DNA of 64,000 bases from Psammoneis japonica (GCA_008632985.1 QPGO01000001.1:838404-902403); one strand, 5' to 3'; shown: positions 41,015 through 63,948, counted from the first letter of the stretch. A program made the numbers and translations. Notes: generated by a model not told the origin, from the sequence alone.

Positions 41015-41237
41015 GTCGTTGCTTGTTGCTTTGTGGGTGCATGATCGGGTTCAGTGCGAACCACCAGGGTTGCATTTGCGCAGGCTGTTGTTTGTGCCTG
41101 ACACCAGGGCGGCACCCACGGCAGCCAGAAAATCCGCGCATGTTGTCAGCCCCTCCAAACAGATTTGATGCTTTGGAAATTGAGAACATCAAAGAACATG
41201 TTCTGTGGGATGCCTTGTTCAATGGCCCGAAGCCTTC

Positions 41238-43527
41238 TGTTGTAATCTGTCCTTCTGGCGACTGTTCCAGAGCCACCTCAGTCCTCTAAGGTCTGATCCT
41301 GAGGCCAAAACAGACAAGCTTGTTATCACAATGCTTTCCAAGAGTCAAAAGAGAACAATGGCTGCTTTCATCGGCAGTTTCAGTGCCTCACACAGAGCAC
41401 ATGAGCGCTGATGCACACGTCTTCTTCGCGCTGTCTAATTTCGGTGTTTGAACTTTTAATTCACCATTTCCAACACACTCCTGCTGACCAATGACAAGAT
41501 TCTTGCCATTTCCAAATTTGACCATCTCAGGCACTTGGATGTTCATGATGGCTTGACGATCAATGATGAACTTCTTGCCAACCACTGGTTTGGTCATGCA
41601 ATCTGCCATCATCTTGTCTGTTGGGCAGAACTCAATCTCAAGTTCTCCTCGCTTGATGAGGTCAGTGATGTAAAAACACTTGATGTTGAAATGTCTCGTG
41701 CGTTTGCCCAAGCTGGCCTTTCCATTTTGTTCTAGTTTCACGCAACTTTGATTGTCTCGATGCATGATGTTGTGCTCGACTTCAAAACCTTGAGCTTCAA
41801 TGAAAGGCTTGGTCCAAAGGACCTTCGCCAAAACATCATCTCCTGCAACGATCTCTGCTCCTGTGGAACTCCTGGTGTTGATTTTCTGCTTCGCACTGAC
41901 TGATGCAATGACACCTTTTCCAAGGGTCATGGTAGAACCTGTGTGACTTTTACAGTCCGGATGGACTGCAAATGCGGCATCCATGTGCCACTCGATGATG
42001 ACTTTGTCTCCAGCCGACATGACTGCGACATCAAGCTGGGTTGTCCTGAGGAAATTCATGAGTCTCACCAGCTTTGGCCAATGTTGATGGCCCATTTTGC
42101 TTGAGGTTTTCCTGGCCTTTCCCAGCACTTGTTGGAATTGTGTCCGGCCTTGCCACAGCAGCAAAACACTTGCCTTCTAACTGAGCGAAGGACAGCGTGA
42201 TTTCTTGGTTTTCTTCTTGTTTCTTGGAGTCAGAGTTGTTGTTTCGATTGTTCCTGTTACGATGGTTGTCAGGCTCGAAAGTGTGGTTGCTCAACACGGT
42301 GTTGGCTTCCGCAATGGACTTGGGATGTTGGTCGTTCTTGAGGGACTGCTGAGTGTTCAACCCTGTTAGAATTGATCCGCACTTGCGCTGGTCTGCGTTC
42401 TCCAAGCACATGCAACCCATCAATTGGCTGAACGCCTTTTCTTGACACTTCTTGATGGAATCCGCACTGTGCTCGTCGCATTCTGACATGCATTGCACAG
42501 CCTTGGTGAGGACAACAGGTCCTCCAATGTGAGACTTCATGATGTCCCTTGCAACCCTGAATCTCTTGGTGTGATCTTGGAGACTTTCCTTCTCCTTCTG
42601 CTTGGTTTCCAGCACCGCTCTCATTGAATCTGAGACGATGGCCATGTCACACCTGTGCTCTTGGCAGTTCAATGCATGCTCCTTAATTGCCTTGAGCAAT
42701 TCGACAGGATCGTTTTCAATTTTGGTTTGGAACTCGGTTCTTGCTTGAATTTTGTTCTTCATGGCCTTGGAGCATCTCTCCCAGAGCAAAGCACAAGCCT
42801 TGATTAGGTTGTTCTCATGAGTTTGGGTCCTCTTAATGTGAGCATCAAATTCTGTCTTGAACTCAATTTCGCACTGTTTGTTCAACGGCACATCCACCTT
42901 GTCATCTCCAGTCAAGCTGATCTGCAAAGTCGGCTTCTTAGAACTCATGTCACATGGAGTGCAAGTGTTGAGTGCAGTTGCAATGTCATTTCCAAACTCA
43001 TGAGTCTTCTCAATGTAGTTGACAATGAACTCAGCAGCAATCTGAAAATCAGATGCTTGCTTGGCACTTCCAAAACAGCAGACACAATCACTGGCGCCCT
43101 TGTGGCTTTGCTTGCCACTCTTGTTTCCCCTTCCTGAGGATCCTCTTCCTTGGCTTCTGTTGCCAGTTCCACCTCTGCCTCTTCCACTCATGATAAAAAG
43201 GCAAAGCAGCAAAATGTCTCACACACCGTGAGAATGACTCTTTTCTTGCTTTCTTTTCACAGCTCTCAGCTGGATCACTCTCTTTTGACTGTTGCAACTT
43301 GTCCTTCTGGCGACTGTTCCAGAGCCACCTCAGTCCTCTAAGGTCTGATCCTGAGGCTAAAATGGACAAGCTTGTTGTCACAACACTTTCCAAGAGTCAA
43401 AAGAGAACAATGGCTGCTTTCATTGGCAGTTTCAGTGCCTCACGCAGAGCACATGAGCGCTGACGCATGCGTCTTCTTCGCGCTGTCCAACTTCAGTGTT
43501 TGAACTTTTAATTCACCATTTCCAACA
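41238..43527 (-). mobile_element. Internally deleted copy of Copia family A, inverted orientation
   Basis: LTRs at about 41238-41476 and 43290-43527; TSD CCTTC at 41233-41237 and 43528-43532; gag joined directly to the RT-end/RNase H region near 42080. Confidence 0.95.
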
Positions 43528-44149
43528 CCTTCTGGTTGCTTGTGCCATGATCATTGCCTCAGGGTGGCTCTTTCAGGTGGGGACAACATGAAGTCAGTCT
43601 GCACCATGGATCAGCAGAAGGGAGCCAATGATCGTGAAAAAGGACATTTGGAGAGAGACAACTGCTCTTCTCGTGTTTCATCTGGATCAGCAGCAGGGAG
43701 CCAATGATCCTCATCTGGAAGATGATGCTGAGGATGGGCGAAAGGCTTTCATGGTGCAAGCTGAGCACAGAGCAGAGCACGCTTCAAAGCAGAGCCTGGG
43801 CTGATGTTGACACCCTGGAAGAGGAGGAATTCCCTTGGATCTCAGAGCTGCTGGGCTGCACAGATGAGAAGGCTGCTGCTCACCACGTCCTGTCCAAAGC
43901 GCCTGCTTTTGAGGCTCAGGTTGGTCAGTTTGAAGTGGAGCTGCAATGTGCAGAATGTGAGCCAGTCAATGAGTTTGACTTTCAAACTGAAGGCAACCTG
44001 GCTGTTGTGTTAGAAAGCTTGCGTTGGTGGCGAGCGAGTCTCTGCTTTGGAGCATGGTTCCCAGTGCTTGCTCGCTGGCTGGCAGCAGATGATTTCTGTG
44101 GCAGATTCGCACATTTGAGTTCCTCATTTGCACTGAAGGAGCACAATTT

Positions 44150-47100
44150 GGCAGTCTGCAGGTGACCTTTGTTTTGGAAAATTGTGCGCCAAAAGCTCAA
44201 ATGGACGCTGAAGTTAGATGGCACAGCACGCAAGACCAAAGTGCATGTGCCAGGGCTGAGGTGCTCCACGTGAAGCTCGCACACTGCTCTGCACTTCTTT
44301 CAACTGTTTTTGCATCACACAGATTTTCATCAAGAGGGACTGAAATTGCGTTTTGCCCAACTGGCCAGTGCTCCACGCTTCACGTTAAAAGCACATGCAC
44401 TGCAGCCACGAAATCTCTTTCAACTGTTTTTGCATCACAGATGAGTGAACTTGCTCCACGTGAAGCTCGCACACTGCTCTGCACTTCTTTCAACTGTTTT
44501 TGCATCACACAGATTTTCATCAAGAGGGACTGAAATTGCGTTTTGCCCAACTGGCCAGTGCTCCACGCTTCACGTTAAAAGCACATGCACTGCAGCCACG
44601 AAATCTCTTTCAACTGTTTTTGCATCACAGATGAGTGAACTTTGAAGTTGTGCTCTGCCCAGCTGACAAGATGCTTGGACATTTTATGACCAAGCCTGTG
44701 GGGTTGGCAAGAAGTTCATTGTGGGTCGTCAAAAAATCATGATCATTCAAGTGCCTGAGATGGACAAATCCAAAATTGGAAAGTGTCTTGTCTTTTTGGC
44801 CAGCAGGAGCATGTTGGAAAATCATGCCGTTCACCATGAGCTCAGATGAACCCCGAAACAATGTGGCACAGCATGCAAGACCAAAACGCACGCGTCAGTG
44901 CTGATGTGCTCCACGTGAAGCACGCACTCTGCTCTGCGCTCTTTCAACTGTTTTTGCATCACAGATCTCATCAAGAGGGGTGAACTTGAAATTGTGTTTT
45001 GCCCAACTGACAAGATGCATGGAGACATTGTGACCAAGCCTGTGGTTGGTGTGAAGTTTGTTGTGGATCGTCAACAGATCATGATTGTCCAAGTGCCTGA
45101 GGGTTAGCCTAAGATGGGCAAACCCAAAATTGGAAAGCGTCTTGTGTTGGAAAATTGTGCACCAAAAGCTCAGACAGGTGCCGAAATTAGATGGCACGAT
45201 CGTCAACAGATCATGAACATCATAGTGCCTGCGGCAAGATGGGCGAATCCAAAATTGGAAAGTGTCTTGTCCTTCGGACAGCAGGAGTGTGTTGGAAAAT
45301 TATACACCAAAAGCTCAGGTGGATGCCAAAATTAGATGGCACAGCATGCAAGACCAAAACGCATGCGTCATTGCTGATGTGCTCCACGTCAGGCACATGC
45401 ACTGCTCTGAAGCCGTCATTGATCTCTTTCAATAACTTTGTGTCACAGATCTCATCAAGAGGGGTGAACTTGAAATTGTGTTCTGCCCAACTGGCAAAAT
45501 GCTTGGAGATTTTATGGCCAAGCCTGTTGTTGGTAAGAGTTAGGGTTAGGAGAAAAGAAGTTCATGGTGGATCGTCAACAGAACATGCACCTTCACGCTT
45601 CTGCATCAAGGATGGATCCACGGGGGTGAGGGCGGACATTTACGGGCCTCGAATTTACCGCATTTCGCCGTGTTATTTGGACCTTTCTCGGAACAGCCCC
45701 AAAAATTTTATGTGTTCGACAAACCCTCATCAGGGCTGTTAGACCGCTATAAAAGCTGCATGTTCGAAGCTTCAAACGACACTTATCGGCCTATGCGCTG
45801 TCGGTAGGTTGAAATTATCGCAAAATTTTGCTCAAATCGTGCTCTTTATGTAAACAAGCAATAACTTTCCAGGAAATGCTGATAATTGGCGTTTGATTGG
45901 CTATCAATGTACCGGTATCTAGAGTCGATAAGCTAAACATCGCGCATGGGTAAAACCATTGACCAATCCTTCTATGATGTCCTAGGAACGGACAATGTTC
46001 GACCTATCGCTGGAATTATATTTTGGTAAACGCGCGTGCTTTTAGTGCAATGAATCCGGATTTTTTTCACAAAACTGATGGGTCCGTAAATATCCGACCT
46101 CACCCCCGTGGATCAATCCTTAAGATGGGCAAATGGGCAAATCCAAAATAGGAATTTGTTGCTCAGATAGACGCCGAAATTAGATGGCGCAGCAAGCAAG
46201 ACCATAACGTATGTGTCAGTGACAATATTCTCCACGTGAAGCAAGTAAGCTACTCTGAAGCAGCCATTAATCAAAGGTTCAGATTAGTCAGTTTGAAGTG
46301 GAGCTGCAATGCGCAGAATGTGAGTCAGTCAATGAGTTTGACTTTCAAACTGAAGGCGACCTGGCTGTTGTGTTGCAAAGCTTGCGTTGGTGGCGAGCCA
46401 GTCTCTGCTGGCCAGCGAGCAAGCACTGGGAACCATGCTCCGAAGCAGAGACTCGCTCGCCACCAACGCAAGCTTTTTATAACAACAGCCAGGTTGCCTT
46501 CAGATTCACACATTTGAGTTCCTCATTTGCACTGCATGTGACGGAACACAGTTTGGCAGTCTGCAGGTGACCTTTGTTTTGGAAAATTGTGCACCAAAAG
46601 CTCAGATGGACGCTGAAATTAGATGGCACAGCACGCAAGACCAAAGTGTGCGTGTGCCAGGGCTGAGGTGCTCCACGTGAAGCACGCACACTGCTCTGCA
46701 CTTTTTTCAACTGTTTTTGCATCACAGATCTCATCAAAAGGGGTTGAAATTGCGTTTTGCCCAACTGACCAGTGCTCCACGTTAAAAGCACATGCACTGC
46801 TCTGCAGCAGTCACGAAATATCTTTCAACTGTTTTTGCATCACAGATGAGTGAACTTTGAAGTTGTGTTCTGCCCCACTGACAAGATGCTTGGAGATTTT
46901 ATGACAAGGCCTGTGGGGTTGGTAAGAAGTTCATTGTGGGTCGTCAAAAAATCATGAAGATCCAAGTGCCTGGGATGGACAAGTCCAAAATTGGAAAGTG
47001 TCTTGTCTTTTGGCCAGCAGGAGCATGTTGGAAAATCATGCCATGCACCATGAGCTCAGATGGACCCCGAAATTATGTGACACAGCATGCAAGACCAAAA

Positions 47101-47795
47101 CGCACGCGTCAGTGCTGATGTGATCCACGTGAAGCACGCACTCTGCTCTGCGCTCTTTCAACTGTTTTTGCATCACAGATCTCATCAAGAGGGGTGAACT
47201 TGAAATTGTGTTTTGCCCAACTGACAAGATGCATGGAGACATTGTGACCAAGCCTGTGGTTGGTGTGAAGTTTGTTGTGGATCGTCAACAGATCATGATT
47301 GTCCAAGTGCCTAAGGGTTAGCCTAAGATGGGCAAACCCAAAATTGGAAAGCGATCGTCAACAGATCATGAGCATCCAAGTGCCTGCGGCAAGATGGGCG
47401 AATCCAAAATTGGAAAGTGTCTTGTCCTTCGGTCAGCAGGAGTGTGTTGGAAAATTATACACCAAAAGCTCAGGTGGATGCCGAAATTAGATGGCACAGC
47501 TTGCAAGACCAAAACGCATGCGTCATTGCTGATGTGCTCCACGTCAGGCACATGCACTGCTCTGAAGCAGTCATTGATCTCTTTCAATAATTTTTGCATC
47601 ACAGATCTCATCAAGAGGGGTAAACTTGAAATTGTGTTCCGCCCAACTGACAAAATGCTTGGAGATTTTATGACCAAGCCTGTTGTTGGTAAGAAAAGAA
47701 GTTCATGGTGGATCGTCAACAGATCATGAACATATAAGTGCCTAAGACGGGCAAACCCAAAATCGGAAAGTGTCTTGTCCTTTTGGCAACAGGAG
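44150..47795 (+). repeat. Patchwork array of shuffled Copia family A-like 3' end/LTR fragments, duplicated as two blocks
   Basis: Repeated cagcaggagtgtgttggaaa, aaattagatggcacagca and gatctcatcaagagggg..ttgaaattg units. Block ~44150-45590 is repeated at ~46555-47795; exact 190-bp tandem at 44263-44642. Confidence 0.8.
45610..46119. mobile_element. MITE with ~40-bp TIRs
   Basis: ggatggatccacgggggtgagggcggacatttacgg versus ccgtaaatatccgacctcacccccgtggatcaatcc; flanks tcaa (45606-45609) and ttaa (46120-46123); AT-rich, TpA-normal interior. Confidence 0.85.
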
Positions 47796-50267
47796 TAAAG
47801 GATGGTGAGGGTCAAGGTGCGAATTAATTTTTTTCACTCTTGGATCATTTCATTTTACACCATATGATTTAAGACTGTCACAAATCAATGAAATTTCATT
47901 GCATTTGGTTCATCCTATGACGAACTCTTTGTCACCTGCCCACCATAACTCTTGTCTTTGGGATTTATTACAGGCTTAATACAAAGATGTACAGTAAGAC
48001 CAAAATCTCAAATCTATTCCCAACGCTGACACTGATTTCTTGACTGCGTCAAGAGTCAGATTTTCTGATGAACTTGAAGTTCCTAATGAAGAAAGTGACA
48101 AGGCCCCATCGATCTAATCATTGCTGTACAAACAGCTTGAATCAACTTTTATCTTAGAGCAATTACTAATGTAGATATTGTTAAAAATGGGAAAATCCGT
48201 TTAATCGAAAGACACCACCATCTTTCCGATCCCAATAAAAAGCATGATTTCTGATGCTTTACTGTAGAGTTGTCAGTCGCCCCACCTCTATTCTTCTCAC
48301 CTGGATGGTCATAAGATGTCACGGTTTTTAAGTTTTTTGTGCTGAGAAAGCCGCAAAGTTTTCAAGAACTGTACCTTCATAGGTTTAGCCTGAGATTCCA
48401 AAGTACATAACACATGAAATGAGTAAATGCTGCAAAACACCAAAATAATAAATAATTTTTAATTCATGGTGCTGTTCCTGTTGCTTCATGACCAGGGCAT
48501 TGAACCACACAGTTTTACCGTAAGCAGTTGGTGCAGGTGTTCGGCTGCTGGAATCCCAGTGGATGAGCATGGTGGTGGAGGCAGGGGAACGCTAAGAAAT
48601 GCAATTCTTTTTTTTTTCTCAAAAGAGAACTTACCTGAGTCACAGAAACTCGACAAACATTAGTAAAGATACGAAGCACACCACCACCTTCTTTCTTCTG
48701 ACTAGAATTATCAGGTTTACTAAATGATTTTTCTCAATTTGATTGTTGTTAGATGGGTCTGGAATCGTGGTTCAAAGATGAAGTTCTTTATGTTACAGAC
48801 ATTCATCCTCGAATGCGTATGGTGGCTGAACCTCAGCAGGTTTTTGGGGGCGAAGAAGTCAATTAGAACCTGTGTCTTGAAAGAGTGCAGTTATCTGAGC
48901 CCACATTCAGGAAATCATGGGCATGAACTCACCGCTGTTCATGATCGACGAGACAATAATTTGATCACGATGAAATGCTCCTGTTGGACTCTCTGGAGGT
49001 TGCACACCGCATAAATTTTGTGCTCTGTTCTCTCGGCAGAGAAAAACAAGATAAGCTCATCTTATCTTGGGTGGTTTTATGCATGAAACCTCAAGCTTAA
49101 AAACTCGACAAACAACATTTCATGCTGCCTGTAAAACTTTTTTCCTGTTGAGAACATCATCATTGCATCTGCGACTTCACCAGACAAATCAGGAGGATTC
49201 TGGGTGGTGCGAAAATGTGCCAATGGTTAGAGTCCAATGTCATTCAGCAATCATTGCGTTGCCAACACAATGTGCACTAAACAGATCCCGCTAAACTATT
49301 TGCACATTTTTTCACCACCCTGGACTTGCCTGCTGGTTTCGTTTGTGCAGTGTGCTGTGCAAAAATGCTCTGTGTTAAAAAATTTGCTGATGCATTCAAA
49401 CATTTGAAAACTGCAGTTTTGTTGAATGCCTGGTCAGCAAAAACAGCAATCATGAATTAAAAAGCCAATCTTTTTCATTTCTTGGATTTTTCACAACACA
49501 TTCCTGCTGCCAAGGACAAGATTCTTCTTGTTTTCCAATTTGCCCATCTCAGGCGATGTTCATGAGAGTTTGTCGATCGACAATGAATTTTCTTGCCAAC
49601 CACAGGCTGGGGGTTGTGCAGTCTCCAATCATCTTGTCTGTTGGGCAGAGCTCAGTTTCAAGTTCTCCACTCTTGGCCGGTCAGTGATGTAAAAAATGCT
49701 TGGTGTTGAAAAAAATGTCTGGCTGGTCAGTGATGTGAAAAATGCTTGGTGTTGAAAAAAGCGTCTGGTGCACTTGCCAGATCATGGCAAAAAAGCAAGT
49801 CTCTGCTTGCCAAACGCACTTGTTTTGAAAACTCACAGCTCCGCTCTGCAGCCTGAAGAGTCACCCGAAAACCAAGCAATTTGATTGATTTTTCAGCAAA
49901 TCTGTTGATGGGGGCAAGACACCAAGACAAGAAGAAGCCACCTGCAATGGCAGGATCTGCCAAGCACCATGTCAACAGCAACAGCGACTCTCATTCCACA
50001 GACAAAAACAATCTGCCAAGGTCATGACTGCTGTCAAACACAGCCCAAGCTGCGACGATAACTCTGATGATGACTTGCTTGGCTGCTGTCCATTTGAAGA
50101 GAAGCAACCTGCCAAGGTGGCAACCACCATCAAGCACTGTCCAAAATGCGGCGACGGCAAGAAGAAACCCTTCGAACACGCACCCTCTTTTTCCTGGTGC
50201 AAGCAACGTTCAAAGACACTCTGTCTCTTGTTGCATGGGATCTCTGCCTTGGTTGAGTGTTGGGCCA

Positions 50268-53200
50268 TGACAGGATTTGAACAGGATTCAGGTGCGCGCG
50301 AAATGTCGCACGCTGTTTAGTTTGCCGAGCACAGTTTTGTGTGCTTCAGTTCCGCGCGTTCGCGCGCGATGCAGTTTGCTTTCGAGCCACAAGGCTCACA
50401 AGAATAATGACAGTAGCCCAATCACACCGACTTGCACGTCTTTCGGCTCCTGTGACGGTCTCTGAGCAGAGACTCATCTGCCATTTAGACAGCAGCAAGG
50501 AGTTGTTGTTTGAATTCTTGCCATTTGCCTTCAACTTCTGTCAGATTGACAGTCTTGCTCATTGTCAACCCATTGAGCAACCGCCATCGTCGTCGTTGAT
50601 TTTGCCGACGACGCCACTTCAATTCTGCGTGGACCTCCGTGTGTGTTCTACATGCATCGGCAAATCTGCGCGCATGTGACACCAGGGCATCGGCAGGAAG
50701 TTAACGTCGCCGTCAAGTCTCCTTGCCGCTGTGTGTCTGGATTGATCACACTGCCTTTGGTCGCTGAAGACATGCACTCAACGGTCACATCCAAGTCCAT
50801 CCTTGATCCTCATCCCTTGATGCACCTGTTCATCGGTTGATGGTCAAGAACCCTGCATGTTCAAGGATCTTCGTCGCTGAAGACATGTGCACACACGCAT
50901 GTCTTCACGGCCAAGAACCTGCACCCACTCTTCGGACTGCGGTTTTGCTGCCACCCCACAAGCACACCGAGTCCATTGTGCCTGATCTGCCCCAGACCAC
51001 TGGTGCTCTGCAGTTCTGCCAGGTCCACGAGGACGACTGTGAGAGCAAGTGGCCGTGATTGCAGCCTGCGTTGGGGCGAGGGTGCTTTCCCGCGTTTGTT
51101 CGTTCGTCCACAGCACCCAACGCCTGCGTCAGCTGGCCAGCCTGATCGGGAAATCCAACCAATGTAAAATGAGAATGGTTCGGGGGTCTTGTCCACCTCC
51201 AGTCAGCTTGCCTGCAGGGGTTTGCAACCCGCTGCTCCGCTCGCAAGCAACCCAAAGCGCCGCCAGCTGCGGGTTCGGACGTGCTGGCACAACTCCACGG
51301 ACCGGATGGGAAGTTTAGCACTTGACAACAAACGGGGTGGCAAAGCCCGGCGACTTCTGATTTTGAGATAGTTCAAGATTTCAAGTCAAGTCTGTTTCAA
51401 GTCAAGTCCATTCTCGCCCAAGTTTCGAGTCTGCCTTCGCTTCCCAACAAGAATCGATTGTCCTGACACCACTTTTGTCTGCCATGGTTCTCACTCGTCA
51501 GCAACAAACCGATGGTTTTGAGCACGTTGTTGGAACCGTGCTTGCCCAAGGTGCTGGGAGCCCTCTTCGTTTGGCTTTGGCCCAAGACGGCACGGACTCG
51601 CATCAGGAACTGTTCACGTTCATGCCGTCCCAAATCGACTCGCTTGAGTGCGACAACGGCACCAATGTGATCCCTTTGCCCCGTGGTTGTAAGAACATGT
51701 TAGCAGCTCTGGTTAGTCTGTGCATTGTCAAAGCACACAAAGGTCTTGACGTCGCCAATGACTCCTTGTTGTTCACACATGACGAGTTCCTTGCCCACCG
51801 CCTCAGCCCCGACTGCATGTCTTCTGTGTCCATCGGCAGTTCACCCCTCGCACCTCCACATGTCACCAACCCGACCAAGGCACGCGACCCGGTGCGGGAC
51901 TTCAAGCGAGGCATCAAGCGTGATCCCACCGCTTTCACGGCTCTCAAATCCGACAAGCAGTGGCACACTTGGCACACCTCACTTGTGGCACAAGCCAGTG
52001 CCCAAGACGTCGAGTGCATTCTAGACTCGTCGTACAAACCGACCAGCCCCGAAGACAAACTGCTCTTTGCTGAACAGCAAAAGTGCATGTTCGCCGTCTT
52101 CGAACGCATCCTTCTCACCGACAAGGGCAAGGCTCTCATCCGTGAAAATGTGGGGTCTTCTGACGCCCAGACCGTCTGCTGCGCCTTGTCTGAGTGCGCC
52201 CTCGCCTCCACCCGTGCATCTGTCGAGTCCTCCACCTTGCTGACGTGCCTCACCACCGCACGTCTTGGTGATGGCACTTGGAAAGGTCCGACCCACGGGT
52301 TCATCCTTCATTGGCAAGATCAGTTGCGCAAGTGCGAGGCACTCATCCCGGCCAGTGACCACTTCTCTGAAGGACAGAAGCGCGTCATGCTCGAGAATGC
52401 CGCACACCCTGTCGAGGAACTCCGTGCTGTCAAGAACCAAGCTGATCAGCATCGCACGCAGAGTGGCAAGAGCCTCACATGCGATCAACACTGTGGCTTG
52501 CTCCTCTCCGCGGCAGCTCAATGCGACAGCACGTTTCAACCCAAGACGACACCTCGAGCTCCCCGGCCAGTGACCACTTCTCTGAAGGACAGAAGCGCGT
52601 CATGCTCGAGAATGCCGCACACCCTGTCGAGGAACTCCGTGCTGTCAAGAACCAAGCTGATCAGCATCGCACGCAGAGTGGCAAGAGCCTCACATGCGAT
52701 CAACACTGTGGCTTGCTCCTCTCCGCGGCAGCTCAATGCGACAGCACGTTTCAACCCAAGACGACACCTCGAGCTCCCCGACGCGCCATGTGCGCACACG
52801 ACGTCCACTCCGAGGAACCATCCGATGATGTGTTCTACGACATCGACAGCGACGTTGACGTCCTTCAGGCTTGCGCTGCCTGCACCCGCGGTCCCAGCCT
52901 CGCCGGTGACCAATGGCATCGTCTCCCTCCCGACCACCAACGGATTTGGGATTCGTTGCCTGATTCCTCCAAAGCAATCATCCTTGCACATTCTCGCCCG
53001 CCTCCTCGCAACCCGCGCGCCAGCAACCACCATGAGTCCGTTGCGATCAACCTTCATGACCAACGACTTGGGAGCGATGGTGATGTCAACTTGTCCAACA
53101 CGCCTCCTGCTGCCGCTGGTGACCCCGCCCCAAATGTGGACGCCACATCAGATGATCCCATTCTGGCGCACCTCACCAAGCGCAAGCCATTGCCTCCTGG

Positions 53201-56200
53201 TGATCTGCAACGCCTGTTGTCCCCTGACCAAGCCCCCAACGCCAGTCGATCGGGCCCATCCGCCGCTCCCTCTACCTCGCCAGCTCCCACAGATGACACA
53301 GAACTCAACGGCCGCACCTGCCACCGCGTTGACAACCACAACGTCATTTGCTCTGCCTCCGCTCATCGCTCCACACGCACCGGTGCTCCAGTCGATCGTG
53401 GAGCCAACGGCGGCATTGCTGGCGACGACGTTCGCGTCATTGCACACACCTCTCGCCAAGTCGACGTTCAGGGCATTGACGACCGCCAATTGGTGGACAT
53501 CCCCATCGTCACTGCTGGTGCCGTCATTGAGACACAGCGTGGTCCCGTCATCGCCATTCTCCATCAGCACGCATGCACTGGAAAGGGCAAGACCATTCAT
53601 TCCTGCGGCCAGCTGGAATGGCACAAACACGATGTCAACGATCGCTCTGTCAAGGTGCCCAACGGCTTGCAGCGCATCGCCACCCCTGACGGCTGTGTCG
53701 TCCCAATCGACATCAAGGGTGGCCTGCCTCATGTTGCCATGCGGCCCCACACTGACGATGAATGGGACACTCTGCCACATGTCATCCTCACTGGTGATGA
53801 CACATGGGATCCTTCCGTCCTCGACCACTCTGTCACTGACGACGACCAGTGGCATGACGCGATCTCCGACCTGCAGGACGATCCCACTGCCAACCTGTTT
53901 GACGAGTGCGGCAACTGCCGTCACCGTGTCGTTGTCAACCAGGCCATCATGTCCGCCTCCTTGTCCCCCGATCACGCGTCCGCTCTCGATGACCACCTCA
54001 TTCCAACTGAGGACGTGTTCTACGAATGCCACTTGCGCGCAGTTGACCCCACGGACGACGATGTCCCGCCTCCGGAGCGCAATGTGCAGCCCAAGGACCC
54101 CCCTTGCGAGTCCCTTCGGCCCTGCTTTGGTTTCCAACCTGCCGACACGGTCCGCCGCACCTTCGACTGCACCACGCAATGCGCCCGCCTGCCCGCCGGT
54201 GCGCACCTTAAGAAGGCCCACAAATCGCCCAACCCTGCCCTTAATGTGCACCGTCGCAACGAGCCCATCGCCACTGACACCGTTTGTGCCAACACCCCGG
54301 CTGTCGACTCTGGTTGCACCAGTGCCCAACTGTTGTTGGCACCGAGTCTACCGTCACTGACGTCTGCGGCACCAAAACCGACAAAGAGTTTGTCAATGCA
54401 CTCGAGGACCAGATCCGCGAGCGTGGTGCTCCATCCAAACTCATCAGCGACCGCGCTCAGGTTGAGATCAGCAACAAGGTGCTCGGGATCCTACGAGCCC
54501 TCTTCATCTCCAGCTGGCAAAGTGAGCCTCACCAGCAACACCAAAACTTTGCCGAGCGTCGACACCAGACCGTGAAGCGCATGGCGAACACTGTCATGGA
54601 TCGTTTTGGTTCGCCCGCCCACACATGGCTGCTGGCACTCATGCATGTGTGCTTTGCACTCAACCACACAGCGTCCCCATGTCTCCACTGGCGCACGCCC
54701 CTCGAGACTCTCACTGGCTCCACCCCGGACATCAGCCCATTGCTCCGCTTTCACTGGTGGGAACCCGTGTGCTTCCACCTCGATGACTACGATTGGCCGT
54801 CCGAATCCCGTGAGTTGCGTGGGCGCTTTGTTGGCATTGCTGAGCACGTCGGCCACCAGATGACCTTCAAGATTCTCTCTGACGAGACTCAGAAGATCCT
54901 CTGCCGGTCCAACGTACGCTCTGCTGCCACCGATCCTGCCGTTCGAAACCTGCGCCTTGATCCTCCTGATGGGGAGCCACCTGAACCCATCATCAAATCT
55001 CGCCATGACGACAATCCCGTCGATTCTCCTGATGGGGAGATCAGGACACCCAAGATGCCAGTTTTCGATCCGCAAGACATCATCGGACGCACCTTCCTCA
55101 TGCAGCCACAAGAGGACAGACAACGCCACAGAGCTCGCATCGTCAAGGCCGTTGAGGACCATGAATGGAAAGTGAACGGCAATCCCGAGCTCACTAAATT
55201 CGTCTGCTCTGTCAACAACGACGAATGCGAGGAAGTCCTTGCCTGCAACGACATCATGAATCACATTGAGCAAGAGGACGAAGACACTGCTGTTTGGAAA
55301 TTTCGACGTGTCGTGTCACACGAAGGACCTCTGAAGCCTCATGACCCAACCTGGAAAGGCTCAAGCTACAACATCATGCTTGAATGGGAAAGTGGGGAGA
55401 TCATGTCCGAGCCTCTTGCCATCATCGCCAAGGACGACCCCGTCACCTGCGCCATCTATGCACGAGAGAACGGACTTCTCGACACGGATGGCTGGAAGCG
55501 GTTCCGCACCATCGCGAGGCGCCAAAAGAAGCCATTTCGCGTGGCCAGCCAAGCCAAGCTTTGCTCCTTCCGCACTGCACCTCGCTGCAAGTGCGGATGC
55601 AAAGTTCCCCGGAACTGCAAGCATGCCATGTCACTGGACGAACGCAACGGCAACCGCAAATGGGGAGACGCAACTAATCTCGAGATGGACCAACTCGATG
55701 AATACGAAGTCTTCCATGACTGCGGGCCCTTCGAGTCTTCCACTCCTCCTGCGGGACACAAGAAGATCCGAGTGCACCCAGTGCGCGACGTGAAACACGA
55801 CGGTCGCCACAAGGCACGACTCGCAGCCGACGGGCACCTCACGGACGTACCTGTCGACAGTGTCTGCTCCGGAGCAGTCTCCCTCCGTGGCCTTCGGCTG
55901 ATGATTTTCCTGGCCGAACTCAACGAGTTGGAGACATGGGCCACCGACATTGGCAATGCCTGCCTTGAAGCCACCACCAAGGAGAAGCTTTACATTGTAG
56001 CTGGACCCGAATTTGGCAAACTCGAAGGACACATCCTTGTCATCCACAAGGCACTGTATGGACTGCGCAGCTCCGGTCTCCGCTGGCACGAGCGCTTCGC
56101 CGACTGCCTGCGAGCTGAAGGCTTCTTCCCCTGCCGCGCCGAACCCGACATTTGGATGCGCAGGAACGGCGACCATGTGAATGCATTGCCGTTTAAGTGG

Positions 56201-57589
56201 ATGACCTCGCCATTGCCATGAAGGATCCTCAATCCTTCGTCGACACCCTCACGGAAAAGCACAAGTTCAAGCCAAAGGGCACGGGACCGATTGAGTTCCA
56301 TCCAGGCTGCGACTTTTCCCGGGATCCTGACGGCACCTTGTGCTTGTCCCCACGCAAGTACATTGAACGCATGGTCGACAGTTGCACACGACTGTTTGGG
56401 GAGAAACCCACCACCAACGCCCTGTCACCTCTGGAGAAGGGTGACCACCCCGAACTGGACACTTCCGAACTGCTGGGGCCCGATGGCATTCAACAGTTCC
56501 AGTCTCTTGTTGGTTCCCTCCAATGGGCGGTGTCTCTTGGTCGAATTGACATTGCCACAGCCGTCATGTCACTCTCTAGCTTCCGAGCTGTGCCCCGTCA
56601 AGGGCACTTGGATCGTGCCAAACGCGTCTGTGGGTGCCTCTCCAAGATGCGACATGGCGCTCTCCGCGTTCGCACGGAAGAGCCCGACCATTCGGATCTC
56701 CCTGCACCGGCCTGTGAATGGATGCATTCCGTGTGCGGCGAAGCGGAGGAGATGATCCCGAAGGACGCTCCACCGCCCCTTGGCAAGTTCGTCACCACCA
56801 CCCACTACGTCGATGCAAACTTGTGTCATTGCATGCTCACCGGACGCTCTGTCATGGGAATGCTCCATTTCCTCAACAAGTTCCCGGCTGATTGGTTCTC
56901 TAAGAAGCAAGCCACGGTGGAAACTGCAACCTGCGGGTCTGAATTTGTTGCCGCAAGGACTTGTGTCGAGCAGATTGTCGACCTGCGCATTGCCCTGCGT
57001 TGCCTCGGCGTCCCGATCCGTGACATTGGTTGCATGTTCGGTGACAACAAGTCGGTTGTAGACAGTGCCACCACCCCGCACTCCAAGTTACACAAGCGAC
57101 ACACCGCTCTGTCATTCCATCGTGTGCGTGAAGCGATTGCCTCTGGTTGCCTTGAGCTCCACTTCATCGAAGGCTCCCGCAACCCTGCTGACATTCTCAG
57201 CAAACATTGGGGTTGCTCCCAAGTCTGGGACCTTCTCCGTCCCCTCATGTTTTGGAACTTCATTCCATCCGAAGTCGAATCTGTTTCTGTGACTCCTCAA
57301 GCAAACTGGGGAGTGACAGGATTTGAACAGGATTTGGGTGCGCGTGAAATGTCGCGCACTGTTCAGTTTGCCGCGCACAGTTTTGTGTGCTTTAGTTCCG
57401 CGCGTTCGCGCGCGATGCAGTTTGCTTTCGAGCCACAAGGCTCACAAGAATGACAACAGTGGCCCGATTGCACCGACTTGCACGTCTTTCGGCTCCTGTG
57501 ACGGTCTCTGAGCGGAGACTCATCTGCTGTCTAGACAGCAGTGAGGAGTCATTGTTTGAATTCTTGCCATTTGCCTTCAATTTCTGTCA
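50268..57589 (+). mobile_element. Ty1/Copia LTR retrotransposon (family B, CoDi-like), full length, mutated
   Basis: LTRs 50268-50543 and 57314-57589 (TG...CA); TSD GGCCA at 50263-50267 and 57590-57594; PPT ggggag. Confidence 0.95.
51484..57313 (+). pseudogene. Copia gag-pol, frameshifted
   Basis: FKRGIKRD (gag), VDRGANGG (protease), LISDRAQVE and SEPHQQHQNFAERR (integrase), DIGNACLEA, KALYGLRSSG (RT), YVDANL, ETATCGSEF, NPADILSK (RNase H). Confidence 0.9.
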
Positions 57590-59713
57590 GGCCAGCAGAG
57601 GATGCTCACACACCTCACACAAGCTGAGCTGTTTCAGCTCCTCTGTGCTGTTCTGCTTGGAGAAAACCAGCTCTCGATGCCGCCATTTGAGCTCAGCTGT
57701 GCACAAGCAATCCTCCGACGACTCAGCAACGGCAACCATCGAGGCGGCAACTTCTTGCACACTGGCTGGCGGTGCCTCTGACTCTGAGCCAGAGAGCCGC
57801 CCTGCTCAGCGGAAGCTTGCCTGCAAAGCCACCCTCCAAGTCAACTGCCAGCCTCAAATCCAGTCTTGTCAAGAGCAGCCCTTTTCCTCAGGATCTCAAT
57901 GGCAAGACTGTTTTGCCAAGTGTCTGGTTCAAGGGGAAAGCTTTGCATGACAAGTTTGCCCAATGCCCAGTCTTGGATTGTGGAGCAGACAACGCCAGGC
58001 CATTTTGGCTCAAAAGCAGGCTGCCCACTCTTTGGCGACTGATTTTTCCTCAGATGACAGCGGCTGCCAAGCAGAAACAAACTCAGATTTGGGCCATCAG
58101 CCATTCCCACCACTCCTGCTGCGGTCACTTGCTTCAGCACCCAAGGTGAGGGGCAACCTCTCAGCTCTGGACTTGTCGACAACGACTCCAAGCCAGAGCG
58201 AGGGGGCCACACTTGATGTGCTGTTTTCTGAAATCTCTGTGTGACAGGGCTTGCCTGCTCTCAAAGGCGGTGGTTGGTTGTTTTGAAAAGAGAGCTTGCT
58301 TTTCTGCCATGTGCTGCTGTTGTTGCTGGGTGAGTCAGTGAGCGATCATCACACAAAACGTCCTGTGCTGCTGGGGTCGACAACCCAGGAGCTGCTTTCT
58401 CAAGGAATCGAAAATCTTGCTTTCAATCTCACGTCTCCTGTCTCCAGAAGAGCTGCACCAAAATCCTCCAGATGCTCTTTGACAAGAATCTTCAACTTGA
58501 AATTGCTGCTTGAATCAGGGCACTTGTTGCTGTGAAAGCTGAAGGTGGCTTCCTTTGCTGCCGCGGACCCGACTCCAAAAGCTTTTCTTTTGGCACTTTC
58601 GTGCACGTGTTGAGGGTTCCAGTCCCAGGTGTTAGATGTCAGACGGACGACGGTCAGACGATTGGCACTTGAAGAAGAAGACAGATGTGGTGTGAGGTGT
58701 GGTGCGTGCCCAACAGAGGAGAGGGAGAAAGGATCGAGTGCAGTGCAAGCACTTCTGTTGTTGAAATGCTGAGAAATTGCAGTGATTTCAAGAGTGAGAA
58801 GATGCAATTGCAAATGACAGTGGAGGACAAACTGGGAGGCTTCATTGGAATGACACCAAAGTGCCATCCTGAAATGGCAGGAGCAGGCATTGAAGGTGCT
58901 TGGGTTGTGCAAAACTGCGCTGTCAAAAGGAGTTCAATGATGCCGTCACTGCTCATCTGAAGGACAACCTCAACCTTTTTGTTGCCAGCATGACATCACA
59001 TCATTTGGGTCCCGACTGCAAGTGCCAACCGCTTCCACAGCACGGCAGGAATCTGGAGGAGAAAGCAACAAAAAACAAACCATGTGAGAAGAGCACCCGC
59101 CATGATGCTTCTACAGAGCATGTGTGCTGTTCTTTTGACACGTTTGACTGCATGTGTGTGTTGTCAATCTAACAATCTGCACTTTGCTGTCTCACTGTTT
59201 TGCATGACGATGATGATTCCCAAAGCCTTGCGTCAAGAGATGGGTCAGGAAACCTTTCCAAGCCAACAGCAAGTGAAGAATCACGATCCACTGTCATGTT
59301 GCAGAATGATTTCTCCGCTGAAAGTTGGGGTGATGATTCCCATTCCGACTCAAACTCTCTCAGACCCAGCAATGGATCAATCTCCAATCCTTTGTCACAA
59401 GAAGATTTCGTCACTGCAAGTTCCAATGATGATTCTCATTCCGATTCAAGTTCTCCCCAAGCAAGTGACGAATCAATGTCCACTCCCATGTCACAAGAAC
59501 TTGTCGTCAGCGCAAGTTGCGATGATGATTGCTCTGACTCTGACTCTGTCCCTGCATGTGACGAATCACGCCCCACTTCCATGCCATCCAACGCCGACAT
59601 GCCTTCGGATGATGACATTTCTGACGCAGGCACTGGTCTTACGTTGTGCGAAAGAGAGGAGATTCATTTGAGGCGACATCTGGGAAGGCTGTCAGACAGA
59701 ATCTTGGCGAAGT

Positions 59714-60460
59714 GTGATTTCGACGTGCCAGCATTTGCTGATGATCTCTCTGGGTTTGTTGTTGTCGATCCTCGCTGTGTTGCAACCAGTGGTGATTGTT
59801 GGCTGGGAACAACAAAGTGTGGGCACAGAGTGTGGGCACAGAGTCGAACAACTGTGTGAATCCTACAATGCCCAAGGAGCAGACCAAGAACTGATCAGAT
59901 GCAAGTTGCTGCAGGAATTTGGTGGGAAGTTTTATGGAGAGTGCAAAAAGGAACCTGGTGTGTTGAGAGAGCTTCCTGACGATGTAGCAGACAGGAGGAT
60001 TGCGGACAAGTTCCGTTCGTTTTGCTCGAGAAAAAGCCCGTTTAGTCCACCGGTGGCAGCAGATCCTCTTCGAGTGTCACCGCGATTGCGTGCTCTTCGT
60101 GTCAATGTGATCAACCAAAGGGAACTCGACGTTCAGAGAGACATTGTCTTCGGCGTTGATGATCAGGAAAATGTCGAAATTGCCAAGCTAATCAAGAAGG
60201 GGCTACAGAACTGGCGAGAAGCAAATGAGAAAGGTCGACGTCATGTTGAGTCAAAGATCCTCGAGTTTTTGAAGAAGGAGCAACCGAGAATTCGTTTCCT
60301 GGAAAAGTTGACCAGCAATGCAGCTGCTTATTTTCAGATCTTGTGTGACGACAAGGCATTGAAAAATTTGAAACGCCTCTTTCATGAACGAGACCGAGTC
60401 ATCCAGAAACAAATAAAAAAACTCGAATGCTGCAACAACATGCGCATTGGAAAGAAGTGA
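59714..60460 (+). CDS. Hypothetical protein or pseudogene, possibly DUF6824-like, preceded by an S/D-rich repeat
   Basis: GGKFYGE...LPDDVADRRIADKFR and RIRFLEK...ILCDDKALKNLKRLF resemble diatom DUF6824 repeats (from memory). Partly TpA-eroded; frame change near 59800. Confidence 0.35.
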   Translation: MISTCQHLLMISLGLLLSILAVLQPVVIVGWEQQSVGTECGHRVEQLCESYNAQGADQELIRCKLLQEFGGKFYGECKKEPGVLRELPDDVADRRIADKFRSFCSRKSPFSPPVAADPLRVSPRLRALRVNVINQRELDVQRDIVFGVDDQENVEIAKLIKKGLQNWREANEKGRRHVESKILEFLKKEQPRIRFLEKLTSNAAAYFQILCDDKALKNLKRLFHERDRVIQKQIKKLECCNNMRIGKK

Positions 60461-60790
60461 ATTCAAAGGACAAGATTGGCTCTTTTGGCAAGAACGGACA
60501 TTTGTGAGAATGGGTTTCGAGACGATGTTGATTTGATTGTTGTGTGTGGCTCTGTCGATTTGTTTCAATTAGATTTGCTGGCAAAATCGTGGTTGCCACT
60601 TCCAGGCTCAGGATTCTTAGATGACACCTAAGTTCGGATTGTGTGCAACAACTCTTTGCTGTCGAGCATTGTTCTGTAATTTAGTGGTGTAATGTGGTGC
60701 ACTGTCTGGCAATGCAGCACACTGTCCAGCAGCAAAAGCACACGTAAAATGCCAACATCCGTGATTCACATTGCCAGAATCACAATTCAT

Positions 60791-61606
60791 TTAGAATTCT
60801 TCATCTTCTTCTAGTTCCATCCCCTCTTCCGTCTCCTCTTCCATGCCAGCGTAATTGACTGGTGACTTACGGCGATCAGGCATGTTGGAGCATGGGACAG
60901 CTTGATCATCCATCGTTTCTTCATCCGAGGAATCGCAGGAACCCGCATCAACAATCGTGTCGTTCTGTTCAGCACGGGCCACCAGGACTTTTTGATCATC
61001 CATCGTTTCTTCATCCGAACTGAAAAATCCATTCTTCATAGAATCGCAGGAATCCGCATCAACAATCGTGTCGTTCTGTTCGGCACGGGCCACCAGGACT
61101 TTTTGATCATCCATCGTTTCTTCATCCGAACTGAAAAATCCATTCTTCATAGAATCGCAGGAATCCGCATCAACAATCGTGTCGTTCTGTTCGGCACGGG
61201 CCACCAGGACTTTTTGATCATCCATCGTTTCTTCATCCGAACTGAAAAATCCATTCTTCATAGAATCACAGGAATCCGTGTCAACAATCGTGTCGTTCTT
61301 TTCCATCCGTGCCCTTTTTGTCTCTCTCTCCTCTGAAGGAGGCATTGTCTGAACTTTCTTCTTCTTTGCTCTCTGCTCTTTTCCACTGCGAATCTTTGTC
61401 ATGCAACGTTCTAATTTCTTGGTGTCGTGCTCTAATTTGTTGTTTTCAATTACGAGCTTTTTCTGAAGAGTCTTTGCTGTGACCGTGCGAGCTTTCACTT
61501 TGACAGCCATCCTTTTCGTTTTGTCTTCTTGTGCCCCGGGTGAGTCTGCCGTGGCAATGGTTGACACGGAATCCTGTGTCATCGACATTGTGGTGTTTTG
61601 AGACAT
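60791..61606 (-). CDS. Hypothetical acidic protein with 35-aa tandem repeats
   Basis: 271-aa ORF; NDTIVDADSCDSMKNGFFSSDEETMDDQKVLVARAEQ repeated; 105-bp in-frame DNA unit at about 60902-61300. Confidence 0.55.
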   Translation of the reverse strand: MSQNTTMSMTQDSVSTIATADSPGAQEDKTKRMAVKVKARTVTAKTLQKKLVIENNKLEHDTKKLERCMTKIRSGKEQRAKKKKVQTMPPSEERETKRARMEKNDTIVDTDSCDSMKNGFFSSDEETMDDQKVLVARAEQNDTIVDADSCDSMKNGFFSSDEETMDDQKVLVARAEQNDTIVDADSCDSMKNGFFSSDEETMDDQKVLVARAEQNDTIVDAGSCDSSDEETMDDQAVPCSNMPDRRKSPVNYAGMEEETEEGMELEEDEEF

Positions 61607-61748: not shown

Positions 61749-63948
61749 CGAAAAACACAACTTTTTTTCTCTCCTTCCGCAGCCGTGCATCACGAGTTTA
61801 GCAATTGACGACGCTTTTGGCCTCAAACGGCGGCAAATAAGGCATCGGTAGAACCGTAATCATTGTAAGAACATGTGTGTTGCTTTGTTTGTGAAAATCC
61901 GTATTGAATTCGTCGAGAAAAGTGAATCTCGTAGGCGTTTTGCGTGCAATTTCGCGTTGGGTGTTCCCGAGAACGCGATTACTTTTTCGATTTAGCGTTA
62001 TCCTTGTACGGAGAAACGCCGAATCGCAGCTTTATTGTAATATATATGTTGCCTATATGTTGGATCTTGGGATATGTCTGTCTCGGCGTCACGACAAATC
62101 GTTTTATTGCTCATTTTTTGGTCGCTGCCGTGTGTTGTGTTTACTAGAGCTCATTGTTGTTGCTTCAAAGAGGATCCGCTCCGGGCTATCCAAGGCACGG
62201 AAAGTCTCTTTATTGTGTTTAAAAGAGATTCGTTGCTTTGAATTTTTCAAAACGGGGATCTCTGCGTCGTGAAATCATCGCAAATCTAACGGCATGTTTA
62301 CCTTTTTCTCGTTCCTTGAAGTGTAGGCTTTGTCGGGTGTTGATTATGGTCATAACCTTTCTTCCTATCTCATGGTAACAGCAGCTGAGTTGTTTGCTTC
62401 GGGGGAGGGTAACAATTTTGGAGAGGCACAAAGATGGGACATGATACATGGGGTTTGGGTTGCTCCCGGAGTTCGGCATTACACGCACAACAAGAAGCAG
62501 GCCGAATGCACCTAGACGGCATGGTGGTGTAGCACACGACGACAAGAAATTGCCGAAGGAGTATGTTGAGACTGTATTGGAAAAAGTTGGGGACAATGTA
62601 TGGCAGTATGCACAGAAGGATGGTGGGAAAATTCGTCTTCTCAAATCTGTTTGGGAAGAAGTTGATCAGATGTTTGGCCGGAGGATCAAGCATTGGTAGA
62701 AGAGCTGAAGACTCTTACGATTGCGGAGTTGTTTCGTGCGGCGCCAAAAGATGAGAACAACAAACCAAAAGAACCCGTCCTTCTACACTTGGCTGCCAAA
62801 GATGTAGACACACCGTCCGATCAATCCGTGCTACAGCAGATTTTGCGTAGGTGGGGTGGGGGAGGTATTTCATACTTAGTCATGATTGCACGATCTATAG
62901 ATTAATGGCATGACTACACACTCTAGACAGATTTCAAATAGCTTTTTATTCTAGCCAATATATGAAGTTAGCCAGGGTAGGGTTAGTTGATCGCGAATGT
63001 TGCCATTGTTGTCACACCATAGACAGCATAATGCAGTGTTACCGGCATGCCAGTAATGTCAAATAGCGCACGGCGTTACCAACTATAGCAGCCACACCTT
63101 GTCCACACAATCTACTACTAGATAGATAAGCAGCATGACTGCGCATTCTACATAGATTACAACTACAGTTTTATTATTCTAGTAAATTGCTGCTCGAGCG
63201 TTCGTGTTAATGCTCCAGCACAGCTGAGCATCCCCCGTCTTTTTCTTCTTATCATCACACCCAGGCACCCCGCACTTGCGACTATAGTTCCTTGCTTTTT
63301 GTGGCGTCATCTCTTCCAATGCCAGCTCGTGTGCCAACAACCAATTCATCCCTTCTTCATAAGAAAACCGCTTCAAGCCAGACTTGTGAACAAAGAAGTA
63401 GTACTCAATTGGATTTAAATCAGGGCTCAGCTACTGTCACCATGTTTTGAAAAATTCAAAGCAACGAATCTCTTTTAAACACAATAAAGAGACTTTCCGT
63501 GCCTTGGATAGCCCGGAGCGGATCCTCTTTGAAGCAACAACAATGAGCTCTAGTAAACACAACACACGGCAGCGACCAAAAAATGAGCAATAAAACGATT
63601 TGTCGTGACGCCGAGACAGACATATCCCAAGATCCAACATATAGGCAACATATATATTACAATAAAGCTGCGATTCGGCGTTTCTCCGTACAAGGATAAC
63701 GCTAAATCGAAAAAGTAATCGCGTTCTCGGGAACACCCAACGCGAAATTGCACGCAAAACGACTACGAGATTCACTTTTCTCGACGAATTCAGTACGGAT
63801 TTTCACAAACAAAGCAATGCACATGTTCTTACAATGATTGCGGTTCTACCGATGCCTTGTTCGCCGCCGTTTGAGGCCAAAAGCGTCGTCAATTGCAAAA
63901 CTCGGGATGTGCGGCTGCGGAAGGAGAGAAAAAAAGTTGTGGTTTTCG
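61749..63948. mobile_element. Foldback/Mutator-like element with ~505-bp inverted repeats
   Basis: 61749-62253 is the near-identical reverse complement of 63444-63948; 1.2-kb spacer has only short ORFs; no TSD identified. Confidence 0.75.

Follow-up and report, generated by a model that had tools for sequence, protein, structure and literature searches.

The window analysed here, a 64,000-nucleotide stretch of the Psammoneis japonica genome, contains on its forward strand a Copia LTR retrotransposon bounded by a 5' LTR at 50268-50543 and a 3' LTR at 57314-57589. Each LTR is 276 bp long with TG...CA ends, the two align without gaps and the target-site duplication (TSD) GGCCA lies on either side (50263-50267 and 57590-57594), confirming the LTR coordinates of the initial annotation. 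A purine tract at 57308-57313, preceding the 3' LTR, is PPT-like by its position. Copia gag-pol occupies 51367-57453 as three open frames (51367-54360, 54278-56221 and 56197-57453), with a match to RVT_2, the Copia-type reverse transcriptase, at 55748-56173 (E 3.4e-13). Together with the direct TG...CA LTRs and the 5-bp TSD, this match completes the hallmarks of a Copia LTR retrotransposon. The breaks between the frames may be sequencing errors, since single-base indels occur at each of them in another assembly of this insertion. That second assembly also carries the tandem duplication found at 52347-52780 (219 bp at 100% match), neither copy of which contains a TA.

The element lies in a TA-depleted domain (49501-61500) in which the observed/expected ratio (O/E) of TA is 0.00-0.31 per 500 bp. 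The same signature was observed in the family A Copia elements at 35320-43528 (LTRs at 35320-35561, 40776-41017, 41237-41476 and 43287-43528), and a DNA-transposon-like region at 2204-4647 is depleted to the same degree. Across the window, transposon blocks had a TA O/E of about 0.1 and host-gene blocks mostly one of 0.3-0.9, indicating that depletion is confined to mobile regions and that host genes are spared. A 207-bp tandem duplicate in a host ORF, which is short and may be under selection, had 19 mismatches, of which nine were transversions and none was at TA. The best named match of one host gene was a Cylindrotheca closterium protein (47%), by which single gene the host would probably be a diatom. 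The window element resembles diatom Copia elements of the CoDi type, as far as these are described in the accessible literature, in its Copia reverse transcriptase, 5-bp TSD and TG...CA LTRs, a likeness of general features and not to a named CoDi sequence. Many environmental relatives were found at 53-69% identity, and none among viral contigs (viral_contigs). For the best 80 of 366 metagenomic relatives, TA O/E had a median of 0.72 and a minimum of 0.35, compared with 0.12 here, and fell below 0.3 in none. Judged from these sequences, TA depletion appears not to be general among related elements, although metagenome assembly may collapse copies.

Comparison of the two window LTRs identified 24 mismatches, of which 23 were transitions. 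Sixteen were at former TpA sites, comprising four TA-versus-TG/CA differences and six CA-versus-TG doublets (12 positions); six were at CpG columns (five transitions and one transversion) and two were T>C changes at TpT, the complement of ApA. The doublets start at 50289, 50408, 50423, 50482, 50496 and 50504 (within 50289-50505), with partners at 57335, 57454, 57469, 57528, 57542 and 57550. Labelling of these columns as former TA does not depend on the window pair alone, as each of the six reads TA in 5-13 of 76 family LTRs. By these labels, the 5' LTR still reads TA at 4 of the 17 former-TA columns and the 3' LTR at 2. The initial annotation had rested on four sites at which one LTR retains TA and the other does not. 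All four were found within 50318-50415, with TA in the 5' LTR at 50318, 50405 and 50414 (LTR positions 51-52, 138-139 and 147-148) and CA at 50347 where the 3' LTR reads TA (57393; positions 80-81). These sites are exact but make up just 4 of the 24 mismatches, the rest being the doublets, the CpG differences including the transversion, and the TpT changes. Classification of the mismatches by dinucleotide context, as the initial annotation had proposed, placed 16 in the 34 former-TA bases and eight in the other 242 (Fisher P=2.7e-11), and random placement was not seen. With 23 transitions placed randomly, 0.33 doublets would be expected compared with the six seen, and none of 100,000 simulations gave six. 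In family A, to which the comparison was extended as proposed, TA columns accounted for 15 of 35 mismatches in one of the window's pairs and for 10 of 17 mismatches in its other pair, these pairs not having been filtered by TSD.

To place the window pair among its relatives, the host genome assembly (91.4 Mb, 597 contigs) was searched for further copies with the LTR (40 of 948 candidates scored) and with the reverse transcriptase (40 of 372). From the 55 stretches taken, nine with a single LTR were left out, giving 47 two-LTR stretches including the window; also excluded were L051 (the second assembly of the window's own insertion), L066 and L067 (which duplicate L059) and L081 (which is more than a single element or otherwise not one). 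The final sample comprised 43 elements, 38 of them with identical TSDs; as the copies are related, cell counts given below are not fully independent. The 38 LTR pairs contained 709 mismatches, namely 451 transitions at TA columns, 174 transitions at CpG columns, 61 transitions elsewhere and 23 transversions. Transitions per base were 0.35 at TA columns, 0.10 at CpG columns and 0.008 elsewhere, and TA columns held two transversions beside their 451 transitions. Ordinary CpG decay thus proceeds alongside at a lower rate and accounts for about a quarter of the mismatches (174/709).

The direction of change was read from the family alignment, in which 17 LTR columns vary among TA, TG and CA. Two copies (L071 and L077) read TA at 17 of 17 columns in the 5' LTR and at only 8 and 3, respectively, in the 3' LTR. 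Over whole elements, 272 variable TA/TG/CA columns contained 4550 TG, 3770 CA, 2228 TA and 44 CG cells, while 37 of the roughly 33,000 cells in columns fixed for TG or CA read TA. Protein comparisons gave the same polarity. In comparison with 120 intact relatives, Cys or His has replaced Tyr at 10 of 17 conserved Tyr columns, and none of 18 conserved Cys/His columns has become Tyr; among 75 positions aligned with Tyr of the intact relative P0001, 46 are Cys or His in the window element and 10 are still Tyr. On this record TA is being lost, the opposite of RIP. In ascomycetes, RIP is a transposon-directed, dinucleotide-specific, transition-only hypermutation that follows insertion and distorts LTR dating; it is triggered by duplication as such, acts before meiosis, depends on homology and on RID/DNMT4 and makes TpA, whereas the diatom process removes it. 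Classical RIP, with CA/TG changing to TA, is ruled out by the Tyr to Cys/His polarity together with the near absence of TG/CA>TA change.

Doublets were observed in 33 of 38 LTR pairs and reciprocal retention of TA in 17 of 38. No TA was found in the 43 TSD pairs, and two of the five unequal TSDs differ solely by a CA/TG doublet (CCACA/CCATG and CTCAT/CTTGT). A TSD is host DNA copied at integration. Doublets in both TSDs and LTR pairs indicate that TA>TG/CA changes occurred on integrated DNA. Both strands were hit equally, as seen in the TG and CA totals given above, and both outcomes occur in every copy. Agreement of TG/CA states in the first 17 pairs was 0.54 within pairs and 0.59 between elements; for all 38 pairs the values were likewise close, at 0.62 and 0.58. 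In two six-member subfamilies the spread of TG/CA agreement matched permutation. The 0.62 to 0.58 difference leaves room for a small share of TG/CA states that was possibly inherited or gene-converted. The claim of the initial annotation that mutation followed integration and struck chromosomal DNA is supported by the doublets, by copies with an intact 5' and a mutated 3' LTR, by the TSD doublets and by strand equality. The reciprocity on which it was argued is present but is the weaker evidence, occurring in fewer than half of the pairs. Almost certainly, a host process acted on the chromosomal copy after integration and turned A:T to G:C at TpA sites of both strands; each site and each LTR was hit independently, and the family lost about 80% of its TAs.

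Loss of TA is not uniform along the youngest-looking copies. In seven lightly mutated copies, picked for their TA-rich 5' LTRs, the first 630 bp had lost 9% and 19% of TAs and the sequence beyond it 70-77%, the sparing reaching into the leader, and in 21 pairs selected by reverse transcriptase the 5' LTRs contained 176 TAs compared with 84 in the 3' LTRs (P=0.0014). The first ~630 bp of the least-mutated copies, consisting of the 5' LTR and leader, is therefore spared. TA-rich flanks are not the reason, as four of the seven spared copies have TA-poor upstream DNA (O/E 0.00-0.05). Across copies, the less TA remained the more CpG had been lost (rho -0.60, n=43). CpG loss was not clearly lower in the spared 5' zone (16/299 versus 249/3233, P=0.17) and TA loss could not be predicted from local CpG density (rho -0.005), which makes any connection with methylation an indirect one. 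Diatom transposons are described as CG-methylated islands in the accessible part of PMC9998398, and we infer that silenced, CpG-methylated transposon chromatin, and not repeat homology, directs the process to its targets.

The sites that changed carry a sequence fingerprint. The rate of change was about 1.7 times higher for an A before C or T than for an A before A or G, and sense and antisense rates match for most contexts. TACG, a preference for which would suit the tRNA loop of TadA, was not favoured (1.54, compared with 1.95 for TACC and 1.91 for TACT). ApA is a second target in the LTR pairs (41/1823 versus 6/2391 for CpA/GpA), also away from TA sites (26/1064 versus 5/2202; by columns 10/28 versus 4/58), and in family A LTRs (45/1380 versus 23/1739); in the internal region the excess at isolated ApA was weak (0.010 versus 0.008 and 0.007). 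At TAA, TGG outcomes made up 45/928 cells and CAG outcomes 17/1453, although CAG should be the commoner if hits were independent, since a first change to TGA removes the ApA context. By within-site permutation, bystander A on the same strand showed coupled changes at +1 (37/54, 18.8 expected), +2 (24/34, 15.8 expected) and -2 (27/39, 19.1 expected), and none at +3 or -3. TG/CA outcomes showed no strand coordination at 10-1000 bp (z between -0.5 and 0.3), and processive single-strand editing of the APOBEC/kataegis type is rejected for want of long strand-coordinated tracts. TA survival showed no nucleosome-scale autocorrelation. An apparent allelic TA/TG hit at 50406, between the window and L051, was not counted; the contigs of run X1 gave no confirmation and carry the window's letter at 50060. 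In the accessible parts of two published studies, no context preference is given (PMC6506237) and AA>GG is not addressed (PMC8781386).

Adenine deamination is the chemistry favoured here, with confidence evenly divided. It would proceed by many separate small events, each affecting a patch of about 5 nt on a single strand, in which an ADAT/ADAR-family enzyme would convert DNA adenine to hypoxanthine while the patch is briefly open, the change being fixed as G at the next replication. Elements would be killed through Tyr to Cys/His replacement, and LTR divergence would gain ~4-6% soon after insertion. The host genome carries TadA/ADAT-like genes and two A_deamin genes as candidates. These are deaminases of the kinds expected for tRNA editing, a point against this reading. 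One further ORF, the deaminase-dioxygenase L090, is not favoured as the editor, its best matches being free-base enzymes.

The same timing and target would hold, in a rather unlikely alternative, if a Y-family polymerase (iota- or eta-like), in closing very short gaps within transposon chromatin, placed G opposite template T. The host genome contains eta-like ORFs and an ORF whose best solved matches are to Pol iota (E 2.2e-26, compared with 1.7e-14 for kappa and 9.7e-13 for eta). The order TA > AA > other is of the WA type, and short same-strand clusters suit short patches. In the accessible text of two reports, human Pol iota favours G opposite T and stalls after T (PMC3031609), while Pol eta is associated with A>G and enriched in late-replicating heterochromatin (PMC13716900). 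The process described here thus resembles the WA-motif activity of these polymerases in somatic hypermutation, with A>G at TA and AA, short patches and, for Pol eta, heterochromatin enrichment. It differs in a far stronger TA bias (TA over AA by ~50-fold per A) and in the near absence of transversions (2/453). The Pol eta spectrum is less extreme in both respects. A polymerase would also require a TA-specific gap-making step, and the absence of a rate increase next to CpG, noted above for TACG, also counts against it.

Because A>G at TpA leaves the same sequence record as T>C at TpA on the opposite strand, the two are inseparable, and thymine could be the target instead. We consider it improbable that T in (A/G)-T-A comes to pair with G after modification, whether to 5-hydroxymethyl- or formyl-uracil or through a divergent RID/DNMT4-type C5-methyltransferase. 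The host genome has 27 C5-methylase matches, and no enzyme of this kind is known to turn T into C. Diatoms do carry a RID-related DNMT4, whose function is not established in the accessible text of PMC9998398.

An origin before integration, by RNA or cDNA editing with template switching between two RNAs, is very improbable, as is classical RIP. The slight excess of common TG/CA states within pairs and some subfamily structure would suit such an origin, but the doublets in host-derived TSDs, the presence of TG and CA outcomes in every copy and the equal depletion of the DNA-transposon-like region stand against it, and together with the doublets within pairs the TSD doublets rule out pre-integration editing as the main source. 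An assembly or polishing artefact among similar copies is equally hard to credit: L051 does show 38 substitutions and numerous indels relative to the window over ~9.9 kb (with a dense tract at 55831-56137), yet polishing would homogenize copies and not yield 17 versus 3 TAs in one element, and the X1 contigs, which may be the source of the assembly, join the unique flanks to the first 28 bases of the 5' LTR, among them one doublet site, and to the final 25 bases of the 3' LTR, with no difference inside the LTRs.

Adenine deamination has also been proposed for the closest known case, that of Bigelowiella natans, in which integrated NCLDV and virophage DNA undergoes TpA hypermutation (Mettrop et al., bioRxiv 10.64898/2026.01.13.699255). 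In the accessible part of that preprint, TpA-poor coding sequences are enriched for RT and DDE domains and the de novo rate is raised ~1000-fold, in only some lines. The likeness extends to TpA>TpG/CpA change on both strands, chromosomal DNA, restriction to foreign or mobile sequence and nearly exclusive transitions, and by mutation pattern the diatom case appears to work in the same way. B. natans belongs to another eukaryotic supergroup, and TA O/E of its NCLDV insert is given as 0.45, compared with ~0.1 in the near-saturated multi-copy retrotransposons here; its mutations were measured directly, whereas those of the diatom are inferred from copies. The preprint describes mutation exclusively at TpA from 230 events, which may be too few to show ApA, a side target here. 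Its accessible text does not report +1 preference, an ApA side target, bystander clusters or promoter sparing, and a term search of it did not find 'LTR', 'diatom' or 'stramenopile'. No report of TpA hypermutation in a diatom was found in the literature covered, which mostly excludes subscription journals. The process is a variant of a barely described kind of hypermutation, and the reading of the LTR pair in the initial annotation was real and rightly interpreted.

Mutation of this kind has consequences for LTR dating. Mean K2P over the 38 pairs fell 7.5-fold, from 0.073 to 0.0097, when TA and CpG columns were masked; for the window pair it fell from 0.095 to 0.010. Sites outside TA, CpG and ApA differed at 26 of 5616 positions (0.0046), roughly one sixteenth of raw mean K2P. 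Among the least-mutated pairs, six had no differences once TA and CpG columns were set aside. Raw K ranged from 0.038 to 0.122, with no pair closer than 0.038. TA mismatches were not correlated with internal CpG loss (rho 0.20, P=0.27, n=31), whereas total K was (rho 0.59). With no age tracking in the TA part and a narrow range of K, the clock jumps early and the TA part then flattens. This saturation means that ages are compressed as well as inflated. The predicted overestimation of age therefore holds as a ratio and not in absolute ages; it is incomplete in that ages are also compressed and a share of the mismatches comes from CpG and not TA. A diatom preprint (10.1101/2025.10.24.684338) dates elements by identity at a constant rate and describes recent insertions as missing, or peaks as older, in three species; the word 'dinucleotide' does not occur in its accessible text. 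A TA-driven bias could affect those age patterns.

Mutational genome defence, reported for a single alga in a single preprint, is extended by these results to retrotransposons and to another supergroup, with timing and direction settled from sequence alone. The preference for TAY over TAR, the weak ApA target, the same-strand window from -2 to +2 and the sparing of the promoter narrow the search for the enzyme and provide assays for candidates. Young elements look several times older when TA sites are counted. A tentative suggestion is that this diatom may possess a natural DNA adenine base editor as a genome defence, which would act on T-A-pyrimidine in silenced transposon bodies within a window of ~5 nt on one strand, spare the promoter of young copies and belong to the same ancient system as that of Rhizaria; the 'ancient' LTR bursts reported in some diatoms may then be its artefacts.

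The inverted repeats at window positions 61749-62253 and 63444-63948 (505 bp, 97.6 % identity) retained their TA dinucleotides, 25 and 22 respectively, and differed at 12 positions, with two doublets (CA in one copy against TG in the other) among the mismatches. These repeats represent a DNA transposon, either young or unsilenced. A cluster of diverged repeat units at 43900-47800 had an ordinary mismatch spectrum with many transversions in the two pairs compared, though TA was partly low.

One Copia B insertion recurred, flanks included, on three contigs (L059, L066 and L067). Between the window copy and L051, a second assembly of the same insertion, substitutions were densely packed at 55831-56137, several of them at codon position 3, a tract attributable to either ectopic gene conversion or mis-polishing. 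Within the Copia B alignment, CpG losses no more than 30 bp apart were slightly more often on opposite strands than expected (z -2.9). Six elements of 3.5-4.2 kb (L035, L037, L038, L046, L048 and L050) have the Copia B LTR in common, show a lower internal CpG observed/expected ratio (O/E, about 0.6) and possibly constitute a non-autonomous subfamily. Among the best 80 of 366 metagenomic relatives, only L176 had a lowish TA O/E (0.35), with Cys or His at 3 of 34 Tyr positions; it may be a partly hit copy from a different organism.

The genome holding the window (G000) contains A_deamin (ADAT1/ADAR-like) genes at two distinct loci, on contigs C40 and C79 (L142-L145); such loci usually number one per genome. 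Contig C79 also carries, on the minus strand (L090:313-1785), a single open frame of 491 aa in which a guanine-deaminase-like domain is fused with a 2OG-Fe(II) dioxygenase. Thymine dioxygenase was among the best solved matches of the dioxygenase domain (E 1e-20), and the predicted protein is possibly a nucleobase salvage fusion. C5 DNA methylase matches in G000 totalled 27. One C5 DNA methylase ORF of 365 aa (L106, contig C301) has a Tyr content of 0 % and lies in TA-erased DNA (TA O/E 0.07); its carrier is possibly a mobile element.
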